Sequence record: PV037056.1
DNA length: 64,000 bases
Reading direction: 5' to 3' (one strand)
DNA from: Staphylococcus phage Fi4S2
The translations under genes were made by a program, and so were the position numbers. This document shows, one piece after another, positions 1,098 to 60,076 of this stretch; positions within the stretch are counted from its first letter, which is position 1; each line of letters begins with the position of its first letter. Below the pieces are notes generated by a model. That model did no database searches, was not told the origin of the DNA, and was given only the letters and a program-made list of their open reading frames with translations.

Positions 1098-1589
1098 CTA
1101 TTTTTGAAGTTTTACTTCTTCTGATTGGTAGAGATACTCATCTCCTGATAATTCAAACAGATAGTCTGATTCATTAACTAAATGTTGGTATATTGCTGTA
1201 ACCAGTGCTACATCAGTCTCTCCTGTATCAGCTCTGTTATAAATTACCTTATCTCCAACTCTTATGTCAGTATAATACTTAATAAATGTTTTGTCAAGGA
1301 AAACATCAAACTTTTTCAAAGTATTTAATGTAATGTCTGATACTGTCCAGTATTTTTGGAAGAATGTATCGACATCATCTTTATAAGATTCTAAAGAAGT
1401 CATAGTATATTGATGGTCATCATCACTTATTCTAACTAAAACATCTTTTTTTGAACGTTCAGCACCAATAATCCTGATTGTCTCACCTTTGGTATATAGC
1501 GTATCTATAATCTCTACCATAGATGTTAATTTCTTAGGTGTAATCAGTTCTTTATAATCATCTTCAATTTGTTCTTTAGTAAATGGCAT
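1098..1589 (-). CDS. hypothetical protein
   Basis: 163-aa ORF in operon context, 11-nt gap to next gene. Confidence 0.5.
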   Translation of the reverse strand: MPFTKEQIEDDYKELITPKKLTSMVEIIDTLYTKGETIRIIGAERSKKDVLVRISDDDHQYTMTSLESYKDDVDTFFQKYWTVSDITLNTLKKFDVFLDKTFIKYYTDIRVGDKVIYNRADTGETDVALVTAIYQHLVNESDYLFELSGDEYLYQSEEVKLQK

Positions 1590-1600
1590 ATTTAGTCCCC

Positions 1601-2581
1601 CTATAGTCTTATGTCTGTATTCTCTACAGCTTTCATTAATCTCTTACCTTCATCAGTTAAGTCCATATTTCTATAGAACTCTTCTTCTTTTTCTTTCATT
1701 GCATCTAATATTACTTCATGTAACTCTTCAGGTACGTGTTCCATCATAGCTTCAATCATAGCTGATTCTTTAGCTACTTGTTTTAGCTGTATTTCTTTCA
1801 TAGCATTTAAGGTTAATCCTTGAAGTTTGTTTCCTGTTAATTTAGCACGCAGTTCAATAGCTTTCATCATAATAGGTGCATCTACATAATCCACAGTTTG
1901 AATGGTTCTAAATCCTTTGTCTATCACAGCCTCTAAGACTTCTATGTCACTCACTGTTTTTTCAAACTTATCAAAAGAACCATCATAATGGCTTAACATG
2001 TCCCCTACCTTGCTAGAGTCTGCTTCTCTATCTAAAATACTAACTATTTTACTAGAAGGCTTTCTACCATCTATAAGCTCACCTAAATCCATACCTGTTT
2101 CCAATGATTCTTGTCGTTTCTGTTTGTATCTAGTTATAGAAGCTTTAGATAGCTCTAAGTCATAACGCTCACATAAGCTAATAATATAACTGTAAGAACG
2201 ACCTTCATCCAAAGCATTATCAACTTTAGCTCTTAATGGTTTATTGTCATAAAGCTTTTGGATTAAGCTTTCTCTCCCTGCTTTCTTTTTAGGCTCTTCC
2301 TCTTCTTCCTCTTCTTCCTTTTCTTCTTCTGTACTTTGAGCTTCATCTAAACGCTCTTTATAATCTTCTAGGAATGAAGATAGGTCTTCTGTGATGTCTT
2401 CTGTTACATCTTCCCACCCATCTTTATTACTATCCTCATTTAATTCTTCCTCAACATCCTTCTTATTTGGTTCTTTATTCTCTTCTTGTCCTTTAATGCG
2501 TAGCTTTTTTCTTGACATACTATTGACTCCTCTTCTATTTTTAGTTGTTTTAATTGTAACAGTAAAACACAATAAAAACAA
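1601..2581 (-). CDS. hypothetical protein with poly-Glu tract and HTH-like segment
   Basis: 326-aa ORF; EEEKEEEEEEEE tract (nt ~2285-2340); YIISLCERYDLELSKASITRYKQ HTH-like. Confidence 0.5.
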   Translation of the reverse strand: MFLLCFTVTIKTTKNRRGVNSMSRKKLRIKGQEENKEPNKKDVEEELNEDSNKDGWEDVTEDITEDLSSFLEDYKERLDEAQSTEEEKEEEEEEEEPKKKAGRESLIQKLYDNKPLRAKVDNALDEGRSYSYIISLCERYDLELSKASITRYKQKRQESLETGMDLGELIDGRKPSSKIVSILDREADSSKVGDMLSHYDGSFDKFEKTVSDIEVLEAVIDKGFRTIQTVDYVDAPIMMKAIELRAKLTGNKLQGLTLNAMKEIQLKQVAKESAMIEAMMEHVPEELHEVILDAMKEKEEEFYRNMDLTDEGKRLMKAVENTDIRL

Positions 2582-2802
2582 TAGTTATTTAAACCCCTAT
2601 ATTATCGCATTTCATAGTATTTCATAATGATTAAAGGTGTTAACTATAAAAATTTGTTATATTTCATAAATCGGGGGTCTATAGTAGAAAACCCTACTGT
2701 TATGTATATAACATTTTTATTATGTAAAATGAAAAACCTATAGAAAAAAGTAATAGGTCTTACCGTTTCATCATAAATAATATAACAACTCTGAAACAAG
2801 AT

Positions 2803-2841
2803 TATAAAAGCATACTGATTAGTGTAGTATAACCAGTATGC
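2803..2841 (-). terminator. putative rho-independent terminator (minus strand) after gene 2853..3764
   Basis: Stem gcatactg/cagtatgc with long loop, U-rich tail on minus strand (tttta). Confidence 0.3.
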
Positions 2842-2852
2842 AATGCTGGACT

Positions 2853-3764
2853 TTAACCAAAATACACTTCTATTTGCTCTCCATTTTGAAGATTTATGAC
2901 TAGTTTGTAGGCTCTAGTATACTTATCTACTTCTACAAAATCTGAGTTTTTAATAGCAGTGTGTTTAAACATTAAGTTAGATTCACCACTAAATATAGCT
3001 ACATAGGGTTCCTCATCTAAACTATCAATGTCAGCTACTCTAGCTACAATACCTAAGTCTGTCGTATCTAGCAATCTATGTTTAGCACCACTCTTACTTT
3101 CCATCATAACTCCGATAATACGTCTACCAAAGAAAGCACTGTCCTCAATTACTTTTAAAAACTTAATTGTTTCTAATCTCTTTAAGGTTTTTCCACTTAA
3201 AGAACCTAGTAACGTTTGACCATCATACTCTTTCTCCATCAAAGCTATATATAACGTAACATAAGTGTCTAAGTAAGTTACTGTAAACATGTATACTGTC
3301 AACTCTACGCCCTTAGTTACTTTGTAAGTTGTCTTTTTCATCTGTTTCTCACTATCAAATAGTAACAAAGCGTTACAGTCGTATGTCAATTCATCTGTAA
3401 TTTCTAAGGCTCTAGATACATCTTGAAAGCTTCCTATAGAACCTGCACTTCTTACTTCCTCTCCTGTCTCTGAATCCATAGGAGTATAGGTATCTTGTTT
3501 AGTCCATAGTATAGAACCTACACCACTGTCTATTAAGCTACCATTTAAGTCCCTAAGCATTCCTAACTGAGCTTTTGTAGGTGTTAATAGTACCTGTGTT
3601 GAGAAGGATTTACCATCTATAGCAGGCTCAAACAAAGCAGGCTCTGCTCTAATACCTATAGCACTATCCGAGTCTAATCTAACTCCTACTAGCTCTTTAC
3701 TATTTAAATCTTTATTTAATTGTGAAAATGTTGTATTGTGGTCTTTTGCTTTTAATCCTAACAC
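2853..3764 (-). CDS. hypothetical protein
   Basis: 303-aa ORF, operon context. Confidence 0.55.
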   Translation of the reverse strand: MLGLKAKDHNTTFSQLNKDLNSKELVGVRLDSDSAIGIRAEPALFEPAIDGKSFSTQVLLTPTKAQLGMLRDLNGSLIDSGVGSILWTKQDTYTPMDSETGEEVRSAGSIGSFQDVSRALEITDELTYDCNALLLFDSEKQMKKTTYKVTKGVELTVYMFTVTYLDTYVTLYIALMEKEYDGQTLLGSLSGKTLKRLETIKFLKVIEDSAFFGRRIIGVMMESKSGAKHRLLDTTDLGIVARVADIDSLDEEPYVAIFSGESNLMFKHTAIKNSDFVEVDKYTRAYKLVINLQNGEQIEVYFG

Positions 3765-3770
3765 TATCCA

Positions 3771-4178
3771 TCAACCTTTCTGTTTGAATGATATAATTAA
3801 TATGTCTTTTTTAAATGTATATTGCTGTCTTATACTTACCTTACCTATTACAACATTGCCATACTTTACATAATAACTCAATGTATCTGTTGTTAAAGTA
3901 CTATCTGAGGCATACTGTTTGAGGTGTAAGTACTTACGATTAATTGTACTATAATTAGCTACAATGTCAAGAGCATATTTTTCTTTTAATTCCATTTGAG
4001 CATCTGTTAGCTTATCGAACATCTTGGTGCACACTAGCGTATACTTACCTTTTTCTCTTGTTTTAGGGTGTGCCATTGTTCTGTTAGAGCCTACACCACT
4101 GTTTTTATACCTAGCTAAAACACGTTTAGTTGAATAGTGAGAGGACTTGCCTTTATTCATATTTTTATAGTTCATCAT
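3771..4178 (-). CDS. hypothetical protein
   Basis: 135-aa ORF. Confidence 0.45.
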   Translation of the reverse strand: MMNYKNMNKGKSSHYSTKRVLARYKNSGVGSNRTMAHPKTREKGKYTLVCTKMFDKLTDAQMELKEKYALDIVANYSTINRKYLHLKQYASDSTLTTDTLSYYVKYGNVVIGKVSIRQQYTFKKDILIISFKQKG

Positions 4179-4989
4179 TGAAATCTCCTCTGTACTTCAA
4201 TTCAGCAGGTTTACGGTATTGGAAAGGATGTTTAGAAACCTGTTTCTCAGAGTCCTTGATACCTAATACCATTGCCTTACCAAATAATGCTTTTAGTTGT
4301 TTATCATTTCTTACACCAATCATGTCTTGAATGATGGCAGGTTTTCTTAATGAGTTATTTAACATACCACGTGCTTCATGTCTTAGTTTGTCATGAGGCA
4401 TAACTTTATCTTTAGATGATGAGTTGTTTTTAAATCTATCTTTACCATGCATACGTATCAATTCAGCTTTCCATAGTACATCTAGCATGTGATAGTTAGA
4501 ATGTATTGGAGAGGGCATAGCTTGTTTGTACTTACCAAATATAGGCTCTCCCTCAAAAGATATATAGCTGATAATACCTACATGATTATGTTTGTATCTT
4601 TTTATTACTTGCTCTACCTTATCAATAAAGTCATCATGACAAACTACGTATACATACTCACAAACTAAGCTATACATACGTAGTTGTTTATTAAGTCGAG
4701 TGGTAGAGTCTCTTTCTGTCTTAATCTCTAGACCTATAGAAGTTCCTTCAGTGTCTATCATTAAACAATCCATGATACATTTACCTCTCATAATTGCTTT
4801 CTCAAAGATTGCAACCCTAAGGTCATCATCCTTAACTAACCCTTCTTCTCTCTCAAACATGTGAGATAAATAGAGTAAGCCATCTTTTATGTCCTGTTCA
4901 TAGTAACGTTCTTCTTTAGCTTTCTTGACTTCTTTTTCATTATCTACAAACTCACTTCTATACTTATCTTTTTTTACTCTCATAACCAC
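4165..4989 (-). CDS. hypothetical protein, possible PD-(D/E)xK-type nuclease motif
   Basis: 274-aa ORF; segment MIDTEGTSIGLEIK (D...E-x-K) resembles a restriction-endonuclease-like core; weak. Confidence 0.4.
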   Translation of the reverse strand: MVMRVKKDKYRSEFVDNEKEVKKAKEERYYEQDIKDGLLYLSHMFEREEGLVKDDDLRVAIFEKAIMRGKCIMDCLMIDTEGTSIGLEIKTERDSTTRLNKQLRMYSLVCEYVYVVCHDDFIDKVEQVIKRYKHNHVGIISYISFEGEPIFGKYKQAMPSPIHSNYHMLDVLWKAELIRMHGKDRFKNNSSSKDKVMPHDKLRHEARGMLNNSLRKPAIIQDMIGVRNDKQLKALFGKAMVLGIKDSEKQVSKHPFQYRKPAELKYRGDFNDEL

Positions 4990-57768: not shown

Positions 57769-58350
57769 ATGAAATTTATATTTTTCACAGACAGTCATTT
57801 TCACTTATTCACAGACTTTAGTAAACCTGATGAGTTTTATCGTAATGACAGATTTAGAGAACAGATAGAAACTTTAAATCATGTTTTTACTCTTGCTAGA
57901 GAAAAGGAAGCTACAATTATTTTTGGTGGTGATTTATTTCATAAACGTAATGCTGTAGATACAGTAGTATATAATGAGGTATTTAAGGTATTTGCTAGAA
58001 ATAAAGATGTAGCTGTCTTATTACTCAGAGGCAACCATGATGCTACAACCAATTCAGTGTATACTGACTCAAGTATAGACACGTTTGAATACTTACCTAA
58101 TGTAAGTGTATTTCAATCTTTTGGAACTATAGAGGTAGGTAATGCAAACTTAGTATTTACAGCTTATGGTGATGAGACTGAAGAGATAAAGGACTACATT
58201 GAAGATAACTACAATACAGATAAGGTTAACATCCTTGTAGGACACTTAGGTGTAGAAGGGTCTTTAACAGGTAAAGGTTCACACAGATTAGAAGGAGCTT
58301 TTGGGTACCAAGACCTTTTACCTGATAAGTATGATTTTATTCTTTTAGGG
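57769..58350 (+). CDS. sbcD: SbcD/Mre11-like nuclease, exon 1 (motifs I-IV)
   Basis: GGDLFH (II), LLLRGNHD (III), ILVGHLGVEG (IV), ends YDFILLG where E. coli SbcD has DYIALGHIH; stop follows immediately. Confidence 0.75.
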
Positions 58351-58523
58351 TAGATGCCCTGCTTATTCGTAAAGAGTAAGTACCGAGTGTTAAATGCTAT
58401 GAATCCGTAAAGCTAACTAAACTGAAACAGAAGAGGAAACTCTAGATGGAAAAGTTGTGAAAACAGAAAAAATTAGTTAGATGTACTAAGGTTAAATCCT
58501 AAGGTATACACAATCGGTCTATA

Positions 58524-58680
58524 GCAGGGAAAGACCTAAGTTCAAATGAATAAGGGAGACCCTCAACGACTATTCCGTATAGGTGACGGAAGTAAAACCC
58601 TAAACGACTGAGGGAAGAAAAATACTCCTACCTTAACTAAGGTAGAACAAATAGTCTCCACCCGTACCGAAAGGTAGGGC
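58524..58680 (+). ncRNA. group I intron catalytic-core-like elements
   Basis: gCAGGGAAAg (P/P4-like, 58524-58533), GACUAU (58568-73) complementary to AUAGUC (58651-56) = P7-like, AAAUAGUCUCC (S-element-like), hairpin ttccgt/acggaa (58573-91), stem ctacctt/aaggtag (58626-46), cccgtacc-GAAA-ggtaggg GNRA-capped helix (P9-like). Confidence 0.5.
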
Positions 58681-58750
58681 TATAGATGAACTATAGGATT
58701 ACAAAGTGGTGTTTGTAATCAAAGAATGTTAAATAAATTATAACTTCCTA

Positions 58751-58779
58751 TTGACATTACTTCCCTAACATGTTATAGT
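58751..58779 (+). promoter_or_regulatory. consensus sigma-A promoter inside the intervening sequence driving tnpB
   Basis: TTGACA-17 bp-TATAGT, then TAAGGAGGTG RBS before ATG 58802. Confidence 0.5.
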
Positions 58780-58801
58780 ACATGTATAAGGAGGTGTAAT
58801 A

Positions 58802-60076
58802 ATGTCAGAAAGTACAACGTACAGAAAAATTAAAATAAGGTTAGTACCAACAAAAGAACAGGAAGAGTTAATGTGGAAGCATGTTCATGCTAGTAGATTT
58901 ATTTACAATTGGGGTCTTGAAAGGTGGTATAGTAATTTAGATAATGGAATAAAGAATACTACAAGTAATAAGTTATCTAAAGAACTAAAAACAGTGAAAG
59001 AAGAAAACCCATGGTTAAAAGAGGTATCTAATAAAACTTTAGTAAAATCATTACAAGTTCTAGAGTTTAATATGAAGAGGTTTTTTAAAAAACAAACTAA
59101 AAGACCTAAATTTAAGAGCTCTAAAAGCAGTATACCTTCTTTTAAAACACGAACAGAAACTAAGTGGGGTAATAAACATTTACCTAACATTGAAGGAGAT
59201 AGGATACGGTTAGAAAAACTAAAATTAGTTAAATTATCTTCTAAGATAACTAAATCTATGAAAGAAAAGAACATAAACCCTGTATTTTATTCTAGTACAA
59301 TCTATTATGATGGTAAATATTGGTATATTTCATTAGCATATAAAGTCGAGAACCAAGACAAAAAAGAACTCACCAATGAAACCATAGGTATAGACTTAGG
59401 AATAAAATCATTAGCTACTTGTTCAAATGGTAAATCTTATAAAAATATTAATAAAAGTTCTAAAGTTAAAAAACTAGAGAAAAGACTAACTAGATTACAA
59501 AGACAACTATCACGTAAGTATGAAATGAATAAAGATAAAATACGAGTAGGACTACTTAATACAGATGGAACACCTAAGATAGATAAGCAAGGTAGACACA
59601 TGTATAAGTATTCTAAAACTAAGAACATTATTAAGTTAGAAAAAGAGATAAAACTCTTACACAGAAAACTTAAAAATATTAGAAATAATCATGTTCATAC
59701 TATGACTAAAGAAATAGTAGAATTATTACCACAAGAAATAGTAATAGAAGATTTAAAAGTAAGTAATATGTTAAAGAATAAACATTTATCTAAACATATA
59801 AGTAAAGCTAATTGGTATGAAATACGTAGACAATTAACTTATAAATGTGAGGATAGAGGAATTCTTCTTACAATAGCAAATACTTATTACCCTTCAAGTC
59901 AAACCTGTAGTCATTGTGGTAATCGTTTAACCAAACAAGACAAACTTAGTCTTAAAGAGAGAACTTACAAATGTAAGAAATGTAATTCTAGTTTAGATAG
60001 GGACTTAAATGCTAGTATTAACTTAATGAACTATAGATACTCCAAATGGTGTCAAAATAATATAATTTCACAATAA
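58802..60076 (+). CDS. tnpB: IS200/IS605-family TnpB (OrfB; OMEGA RNA-guided nuclease)
   Basis: 424 aa; RuvC-I IGIDLGIKSLA, RuvC-II IVIEDLKVSNM, zinc finger CSHCGN...CKKC, RuvC-III DRDLNASINL; N-terminal OrfB_IS605-like region. Confidence 0.85.
   Translation: MSESTTYRKIKIRLVPTKEQEELMWKHVHASRFIYNWGLERWYSNLDNGIKNTTSNKLSKELKTVKEENPWLKEVSNKTLVKSLQVLEFNMKRFFKKQTKRPKFKSSKSSIPSFKTRTETKWGNKHLPNIEGDRIRLEKLKLVKLSSKITKSMKEKNINPVFYSSTIYYDGKYWYISLAYKVENQDKKELTNETIGIDLGIKSLATCSNGKSYKNINKSSKVKKLEKRLTRLQRQLSRKYEMNKDKIRVGLLNTDGTPKIDKQGRHMYKYSKTKNIIKLEKEIKLLHRKLKNIRNNHVHTMTKEIVELLPQEIVIEDLKVSNMLKNKHLSKHISKANWYEIRRQLTYKCEDRGILLTIANTYYPSSQTCSHCGNRLTKQDKLSLKERTYKCKKCNSSLDRDLNASINLMNYRYSKWCQNNIISQ

Follow-up and report, generated by a model that had tools for sequence, protein, structure and literature searches.

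A probable TnpB-only group B IStron in the recombination exonuclease gene of Staphylococcus phage Fi4S2

Host gene and insertion site

The DNA analysed here, termed the window, is a stretch of 64,000 nucleotides from Staphylococcus phage Fi4S2 (sequence record PV037056.1). Two of its open reading frames, at 57769–58353 and 60123–60677, together encode an Mre11/SbcD-like "recombination exonuclease A", one half each, with a DnaB-like helicase encoded on one side and a Rad50-like ATPase on the other. The halves are separated by an element that carries a group I ribozyme, a predicted promoter, a tnpB gene and the core of an omega-RNA (Table 1).

The window comes from a Staphylococcus Twortvirinae phage; its closest public relative, phage vB_SsapH-Golestan-100 (95.2% identity, 24 kb), has an uninterrupted exonuclease gene, in which the empty site reads ...CTTTTAGGG↓CATTATCAT (tail TTAGGG↓CATTATCAT; arrows mark the junction). 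Comparison with this empty site defines a precise insertion of 1883 nt, with a 2-nt ambiguity (GG) at its boundary. Removal of positions 58351–60233 in silico restores the reading frame and yields a protein of 341 amino acids, identical to the Golestan-100 protein at 324 of 341 positions (95%). The same operation rejoins the catalytic motif as LLG↓HYH, the insertion having split GHxH between the G and HYH. A homologous element with identical ends is present in phages PSU6 and SPJ2.

The protein part encoded by exon 1 ends in ...LLG, and the TAG that closes its open reading frame (58351–58353) already belongs to the intron. On the other side, an in-frame TTG at 60123 opens a reading frame that spans exon 2; reading of the sequence gave no in-frame ATG or GTG in 60123–60233 and no Shine–Dalgarno sequence before the TTG.

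Table 1 Features of the interrupted exonuclease locus of the window.
Feature	Position	Strand	Basis and remarks
Exon 1, recombination exonuclease A	57769..58350	+	Pfam Metallophos, E=1.7e-13; colinear with the Golestan-100 gene; open reading frame list
Terminal exon bases TAGGG	58346..58350	+	5′ strand of P1 and predicted TAM; 5′ splice site after G58350
P1 hairpin	58346..58361	+	UAGGG↓U with IGS GCCCUG; 4-nt loop AGAU; 6-pair stem
Probable IStron, whole, 1883 nt	58351..60233	+	Starts with U, ends with CGG; omega-G at 60233
IA2 ribozyme core	58362..58719	+	Rfam partial match, RNAalifold consensus, pair counts, nhmmer
Core helices P2; P3; P4	58362-80; 58385-89/58623-27; 58395-401/58520-26	+	Ribozyme core
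Core helices P5; P5a-d extension; P6	58405-07/58515-17; 58413-58508; 58527-62	+	Ribozyme core
Core helices P7; P7.1; P7.2; P8	58568-72/58652-56; 58573-91; 58598-614; 58628-45	+	Ribozyme core
3′ helices P9; P9.1; P9.2	58661-79; 58680-96; 58698-719	+	Ribozyme 3′ part
AU-rich inverted-repeat stem, 5′ arm	58726..58749	+	Complementary to 60206-60229 at 22/24 positions
Sigma-70-type promoter, predicted	58751..58779	+	TTGACA, 17-nt spacer, TG-extended TATAGT; 11/12 consensus
tnpB, 424 aa	58802..60076	+	Pfam HTH_OrfB_IS605, OrfB_IS605, Cas12f1-like_TNB
omega-RNA 5′-flank hairpin GGAU[UCCGUAA]AUCC	60096..60110	+	Second TCCGTAAA in loop; stem covaries
RAGATH-18 omega-RNA/reRNA core	60120..60210	+	Rfam RF03064, 65.8 bits, gathering 44.9, E=7e-11
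Inverted-repeat stem, 3′ arm	60206..60229	+	Overlaps the RAGATH-18 closing stem (60204-60208) and most of the scaffold 3′ flank
Intron 3′ terminus ACGG	60230..60233	+	3′ splice site after G60233; empty-site comparison
Predicted omega-RNA guide, CATTATCATAGAAGACAGTA	60234..60253	+	First 20 nt of exon 2; identical in the Golestan-100 empty site
Exon 2, exonuclease gene	60234..60677	+	Starts HYHRRQ, completes the GHxH motif

Group I ribozyme

Judged by its covarying fold, the 5′ 370 nt of the element is a complete group I ribozyme of subgroup IA2, comprising P1 to P9.2 and including the P3/P7 pseudoknot. A match to the Rfam model Intron_gpI (RF00028) was obtained when the 421-nt stretch 58340–58760 was searched alone; it extends over 58340–58679 and model positions 7–253, with a score of 24.9 bits (E = 2e-4) against a gathering score of 50. 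Rfam returned no group I match for the whole 64-kb window at the gathering threshold, nor for 2.2 kb at E ≤ 10. Since the match to the curated model is sub-threshold, the case for the ribozyme was built on homologues and covariation.

Sixteen diverse ribozyme copies were aligned (alignment A1). RNAalifold, applied to A1 independently, recovered P2, P3, P4, P5 and its extension, P6, P7.1, P7.2, P8, P9 and P9.2, with compensatory changes at 65 of the 84 consensus pairs. Scored against A1, the full structure with the P7 pseudoknot has 87.4% of cells paired, as against 36–43% in slid controls; both partners change in a compensatory way at 66 of its 98 pairs, and the covariation score is 0.518 (0.07–0.13 in slid controls); no shuffle out of 500 reached the observed values. 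P3 is compensatory at all five of its pairs, and P5 covaries, with CG in eight sequences and UA in the other eight. P7 does not vary in any of the 16 sequences, and the joining strands CAACGACUA and AUAGUCU are likewise invariant across A1. The insertion between P7 and P3′ that forms P7.1 and P7.2 is present, with compensatory changes at 4/6 and 3/4 pairs, respectively, and places the ribozyme in subgroup IA2.

A profile of the homologues, which contains the window's own row, matched 58365–58719 in nhmmer with E = 8.7e-90, and no second copy came to light when the window was scanned with the ribozyme profile. The same core aligns with two introns at an IMG/VR locus with a more distant tnpB (L007), both of which exceed the Rfam threshold (70 and 61.8 bits). 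Clostridium phage c-st has been published as a host of a group B IStron, and the window ribozyme can be aligned with that element too.

These results bear out much of a preliminary description that had been drawn from the letters of the DNA. The motifs listed in it are all present: GACTAT at 58568, AAATAGTCTCC at 58649, ATAGTC at 58651 and CCCGTACC-GAAA-GGTAGGG at 58661–58679. Its pairing of GACUAU with AUAGUC as P7 corresponds to the invariant helix GACUA 58568–72/UAGUC 58652–56, and the GAAA-capped helix that it had called P9-like is P9 itself. CAGGGAAAG, proposed as a P4-like strand, does occur at 58525–58533, where it forms the 3′, not the 5′, strand of P4 and continues into P6. The Rfam match covers nearly the full model, the P3/P7 pseudoknot can form, and P3 covaries throughout. 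The proposed group I core upstream of tnpB thus stands, and this arrangement identifies the element as a probable IStron.

P1 and splice junctions

Relative to the empty allele, the junctions read ...TTAGGG↓UAGAUG...ACGG↓CAU. In group I introns, a near-universal U precedes the 5′ splice site, and a G at this position is atypical. Here the last exon base is G58350, not U, and the U-G wobble of P1 (U58351-G58356) is displaced by one position into the intron. A terminal omega-G, G60233, lies directly before exon 2. Among copies of the element, the end of the exon and the internal guide sequence change together (AAGG/CCUU, GCGG/CCGU and GGGG/CCCU).

A canonical 5′ splice after U58351 was considered and rejected; the intron would then have to end in C, and the histidine of GHxH would become tyrosine. 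A P10 pairing of GAUG (58353–56) with CAUU (60234–37) is possible in the window and absent from PSU6, and is not claimed. Taken with the fold, the junctions suggest that the intron would self-splice.

Terminal stem, promoter and TnpB

The 24-bp AU-rich stem begins after P9.2, and its 3′ arm stops four bases short of the end of the element, so that it loops out the promoter, tnpB and the RAGATH-18 omega-RNA. Equivalent stems of different sequence, 11–35 bp long, are clear in PSU6, SPJ2, SA11/L004, DH2, Romulus, qdsa001 and c-st; the exception among the TnpB-bearing copies examined is copy L005, in which the best stem match is weak and off-position. The TTGACA element of the predicted promoter is conserved as TTGACA or TTGAAA in PSU6, SPJ2, DH2 and SA11, and the promoter would drive expression of both tnpB and the omega-RNA.

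The product of tnpB is predicted to be an intact RNA-guided nuclease of the IS607 type. Its best PDB match is the ISFba1 IS607 TnpB (8iaz; E = 4e-51). The window protein retains the RuvC residues D198/E316/D399 and the CxxC...CxxC zinc finger. Among 10 copies with only 31–93% identity, the D/E/D triad and the four cysteines are conserved, which implies selection on nuclease function. The TnpB of the c-st IStron is 44% identical to that of the window. A serine-recombinase TnpA (ORF A) is absent, as 58351–58801 has neither room nor a reading frame for it; transposition would therefore need help in trans.

omega-RNA and predicted guide

RAGATH-18 is the core of the guide-RNA scaffold of IS607 TnpB (PMC11061315). 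In the window, only 23 nt separate it from the 3′ splice site, compared with a 3′ flank of 64 nt in the ISFba1 reRNA, and for this reason the window omega-RNA is regarded as a candidate TnpB scaffold. A minimum free energy fold of the omega-RNA region alone was no better than shuffles (z = -0.24); as this fold is uninformative, the identification is carried by the Rfam match. The stem of the 5′-flank hairpin varies as GGGU/ACCC and CCGU/ACGG in the alignment of this region (A2).

TAMs reported for IS607 TnpBs are AGGAG and GAGGG (PMC11061315). Golestan-100 carries the TAM-like TAGGG followed by 25 nt of unchanged target, and TAGGG with CATTATCATAGAAGACAGTA is the sequence that the TnpB–omega-RNA complex would be expected to cut.

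Assignment to group B IStrons

The insertion sites of published group B IStrons end in AGGG, TGGG or GAGG, and the elements themselves end in CGG (PMC13565253; PMC4227781), with the initial U lying outside the exon and splicing occurring after G rather than U (PMC4227781; PMC13565253). For BcISt1, splicing after G with a displaced U-G wobble was shown experimentally (PMC4227781). Members of the group have a long AU-rich terminal stem and an ISBth15-like ORF B (PMC4227781; PMC13565253; bioRxiv 10.1101/2023.11.20.567912), and their omega-RNA guide starts right after the 3′ splice site (bioRxiv 10.1101/2023.11.20.567912; PMC4227781; PMC13565253). ORF A is often missing or degenerate, for example in the "ORF B only" element CsISt1 (PMC4227781), so that TnpA is not a required feature.

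The window element has the group B order of ribozyme (58351–58719), tnpB (58802–60076) and 3′ end (60077–60233). It also has the AGGG↓U...CGG↓ ends, the stem paired at 22 of 24 positions, a TnpB of the IS607 type and an omega-RNA at the 3′ splice site. By these sequence features, 58351–60233 is very probably a TnpB-only IStron of group B (IS607 family), in which splicing and TnpB action would take place as described below.

Distribution and mobility

Homologues of the 451-nt region (58351–58801) were found by blastn at 321 places in 132 phage records, Clostridium phage c-st among them. A single Silviavirus genome holds up to six copies when counted by the ribozyme region, and up to five with a query spanning tnpB. 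Viable phages carry related copies in portal, tail-lysin and tape-measure genes. Ribozymes of this lineage are found with no open reading frame in CF5, Alsa_1 and Terranova and with other cargo reading frames in WV and PT1-4, and most of RAGATH-18 is gone from copies of the SA11 and DH2 types.

Between the window and PSU6, the element is 91–94% identical, as against 72–74% for the flanking exons and 60–69% for neighbouring genes. The element being far more similar than its flanks, the same site was reached recently in divergent phages. The two phages differ at six of the initial 18 positions of exon 2; there is thus no co-conversion tract in exon 2, and simple TnpB-driven homing between the window and PSU6 lineages is not seen. 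The shared site may have been reached through homing by way of intermediate phages or through transposition helped in trans.

Public records annotate "transposase", group I intron, RAGATH-18 and split genes separately. In the literature on IStrons and TnpB combined with Staphylococcus phage taxa, no description of the Staphylococcus phage elements as IStrons was found. The kind of element is already known, including from C. botulinum phages, and it is widespread in Staphylococcus phages.

Proposed mechanism and alternative explanations

In the proposed mechanism, the exonuclease pre-mRNA would self-splice after G58350 and G60233 with exogenous guanosine as cofactor, and the phage would thus still make the full-length nuclease. 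Transcription from the internal promoter would supply TnpB and the omega-RNA, the guide being the first ~16–20 nt of exon 2. The complex would then cut intron-less alleles (TAGGG followed by CATTATCAT...), either in co-infecting phages or after excision, and homologous repair of the cut allele would copy the element in. The intron and omega-RNA folds should compete in this scheme, because the terminal stem shares 60206–60208 with the RAGATH-18 closing stem and sequesters most of the 23-nt flank. Such competition has been described for CboIStron (bioRxiv 10.1101/2023.11.20.567912). That lytic Staphylococcus Herelleviridae phages have been invaded by TnpB-only IStrons, which spread in them in this manner as RNA-guided homing introns, is a tentative proposal that we consider plausible, at somewhat less than an even chance.

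A plain TnpB-only insertion of the IS607/IS605 type, without splicing, would leave a lost but dispensable gene, or fragments that act as separate subunits. Such an account would agree with PSU6 and other records, in which two CDSs and a "transposase" are annotated, with the TTG-initiated reading frame over exon 2 and with the missing Rfam group I call at the curated threshold. It is very unlikely in view of the ~370 nt of covarying group I fold, homologous to introns that pass Rfam, the split inside the catalytic GHxH with neither an ATG/GTG nor a Shine–Dalgarno sequence for the exon 2 frame, and the related copies in genes of viable phages noted above. We also regard as unlikely an ordinary mobile group I intron that carries TnpB as a decayed or domesticated passenger, with neither transposition nor RNA-guided cleavage. 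The intact catalytic and zinc-finger residues in 10 copies that have diverged to 31–58% identity speak against a passenger, as do the full-scoring RAGATH-18 and the IS607-type AGGG↓U...CGG↓ junctions retained in the window and the recent movement indicated by an element much closer than its flanks to that of PSU6; the lack of TnpA, the ribozymes without a reading frame or with other cargo, and the loss of most of RAGATH-18 from SA11- and DH2-type copies would be expected of one.

The preliminary description had likened the element to CdISt1, that is, to an IS200/IS605 IStron with subterminal hairpins, marked by TCCGTAAA, for a Y1 HUH transposase. The 8-mer does occur twice, at 58404–58411 and at 60100–60107 (the latter given earlier, off by one, as 60099–60106), where ~0.04 occurrences are expected per 1.9 kb, and "IS605" appears in the names of the TnpB Pfam domains. 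Yet the junctions refute this assignment, which we consider extremely improbable: the target is AGGG, not TTGAT/TTTAT, and the end is CGG, not TCAG; together with the long AU-rich stem and RAGATH-18, which is associated with IS607 TnpBs, they point to group B instead. The two 8-mers have separate places in covarying structures, the 5′ copy being a P5 strand with the start of the ribozyme loop L5 and the 3′ copy lying in a hairpin loop, and the 5′ and 3′ sites have diverged from one another in SPJ2, qdsa001 and DH2 (A1 and A2). With separate roles and no joint conservation, the match in the window is best explained as coincidence rather than as a transposase-binding pair. A hairpin CGTAAAT/ATTTACG around the second copy was also discarded, as A2 has the covarying stem GGAU/AUCC with the 8-mer in the loop.

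Implications

IStrons are the known case in which a single RNA has to double as self-splicing ribozyme and guide of TnpB, and work on them has so far concerned Clostridium and Bacillus genomes and C. botulinum (pro)phages. Intact, diverged, multi-copy TnpB-only elements in strictly lytic Staphylococcus phages offer a tractable system for asking whether TnpB can work as a homing endonuclease guided by RNA when phages co-infect. Were RNA-guided homing confirmed, it would constitute natural RNA-programmed intron homing without a transposase, with the ribozyme keeping the insertion harmless. It would also account for why essential phage genes carry several copies in their conserved motifs and why the element reached one and the same site in phages whose flanks are only ~73% identical. 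Many public Staphylococcus phage records, including those of therapy candidates, list a "transposase" with a piece of a "split" gene (exonuclease, portal or tail lysin) on either side; most probably, these genes are intact after splicing.

Comparison with known systems

Examples of group B are BcISt1 from bacteria of the Bacillus cereus group, CbISt1-4 from Clostridium botulinum and its phages c-st and D-1873, and CboIStron/CseIStron (Tourasse 2014, PMC4227781; Zedaveinyte 2023, bioRxiv 10.1101/2023.11.20.567912). With these the window element has in common a 5′ IA2 ribozyme, a GG-ending site, U as first base, a predicted splice after G, a CGG end, a long AU-rich stem around the IS part, an ISBth15-related TnpB and an omega-RNA that stops at the 3′ splice site, its predicted guide being in exon 2. 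It differs from them in its host, a strictly lytic Staphylococcus Herelleviridae phage, in having neither TnpA nor a remnant of it, in an L1 of only 4 nt and in a spacer of only 23 nt between RAGATH-18 and the 3′ splice site. A further difference is the presence of the family at several places in each Silviavirus genome, in structural as well as replication genes.

ISFba1 (PDB 8IAZ; Ren 2024, PMC11061315) shows full-length TnpB homology and likewise has RAGATH-18 downstream of tnpB. The window residues aligned with its D194/E290/D371 are conserved, and TAGGG resembles the reported GAGGG TAM. Unlike ISFba1, the window system lies inside a group I intron, and its 23-nt 3′ flank doubles as a strand of an intron helix.

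Group A IStrons (IS200/IS605 family), such as CdISt1 of Clostridioides difficile, are similarly chimeras of a 5′ IA2 group I intron and a 3′ TnpB-bearing insertion sequence. The window element has none of the features that set this group apart: insertion after TTGAT, ATTAT or TTTAT, a TCAG end, splicing after U, a terminal stem that is short and balanced, and subterminal palindromes on which a Y1 transposase acts.

The classical group I introns of Twort-like Staphylococcus phages (those of Twort orf142, and those of phage K and Romulus/Remus with HNH or other homing endonucleases) share with the window element the phage family, an IA2-type fold with P7.1 and P7.2 and insertion into conserved motifs of essential genes. 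The window element differs in its cargo, an RNA-guided TnpB with its guide RNA in place of a protein-only homing endonuclease, and in its predicted 5′ splice site after G.

Probable recent arrival at a shared insertion site

The IStron at 58351–60233 shares 91–94% identity with the element occupying the identical site in phage PSU6 (2095–3974), whereas the flanking exons of the exonuclease gene are only 72–74% identical between the two phages and the neighbouring genes 60–69%. Exon 2 opens with an 18-nt stretch in which the two phages show six differences, all synonymous, and a co-conversion tract is therefore absent from this exon. These sequence comparisons point to recent acquisition of the element at this site, by horizontal transfer, in the window phage and PSU6.

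A related IStron splits the same exonuclease gene at another conserved motif, FGG|DLFH, in phage SPJ2 (approximately 1472–3425) and likewise in LJLAME001; the TnpB of this SPJ2-type element is 55% identical to that of the window. Both insertion sites in the gene are located in catalytic phosphoesterase motifs.

Distribution in other phage genes

Members of the window family are also found inside the portal gene of Romulus (2438–4379), this gene being interrupted in Romulus/Remus, and in the tail-lysin gene of qdsa001 (approximately 2452–4334). Silviavirus records contain up to six matching places each with the ribozyme-region query and up to five with the tnpB-spanning query, and their annotation lists these loci as a ‘transposase’ between split genes.

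The match between window 30000–54000 and 29328–55351 of Golestan-100, the closest public relative, is composed of two pieces, with Golestan-100 longer by approximately 2 kb. This difference reflects an indel among the tail genes, and the additional Golestan-100 DNA is possibly another mobile intron or endonuclease that is absent from the window.

Ribozyme conservation and variation in cargo

The P5 extension of the ribozyme includes GGUUAAAUCC (58490–58499, within 58488–58502). The GGUUAAAUCCUAA motif of this extension is invariant in 16/16 homologues, including the Clostridium and IMG/VR copies, and may represent a tertiary-contact module.

Homologous ribozymes in phages WV and PT1-4 harbour different ORFs. 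The WV product has a weak, below-cutoff match to I-HmuI (NUMOD-like), and that of PT1-4 matches DUF4379/DUF2726. A single intron lineage thus carries TnpB as well as candidate protein-only endonucleases.

Coordinates of variant elements related to the window IStron
Phage or contig	Position	Feature
SA11	3701–3784	tnpB stop to 3′ splice site, only ~85 nt
DH2	4133–4216	tnpB stop to 3′ splice site, only ~85 nt
WV	3004–4299	Homologous ribozyme, 431-aa ORF
PT1-4	2792–3574	Homologous ribozyme, 260-aa ORF
IMG/VR UViG_3300045988_158589	1926–2258; 4430–4763	Two group I introns passing the Rfam threshold
CF5	~2452–2955	ORF-less mini-IStron
Alsa_1	~1222–1735	ORF-less mini-IStron
Terranova	~2455–2966	ORF-less mini-IStron

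Elements with little or no detected RAGATH-18 and ORF-less elements

In the SA11 and DH2 IStrons, RAGATH-18 is mostly lost, leaving the outer stem alone. As their TnpB proteins retain the catalytic and zinc-finger residues, they may be TnpBs without a cognate guide scaffold. In the IMG/VR contig, the tnpB between the two introns encodes a product 31% identical to that of the window, and RAGATH-18 was not detected there at E ≤ 0.1; this locus may have another omega-RNA type or consist of tandem elements.

The mini-IStrons of CF5, Alsa_1 and Terranova share the window-family ribozyme and the GG|UAA 5′ junction, possess the AU-rich terminal stem, with a loop of only ~60–85 nt, and end in UGG. They are positioned at or near the junctions of tape-measure and tail-lysin genes, that of Terranova lying upstream of the endolysin gene. 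These three elements resemble the derivatives of BcISt1 that lack an ORF.
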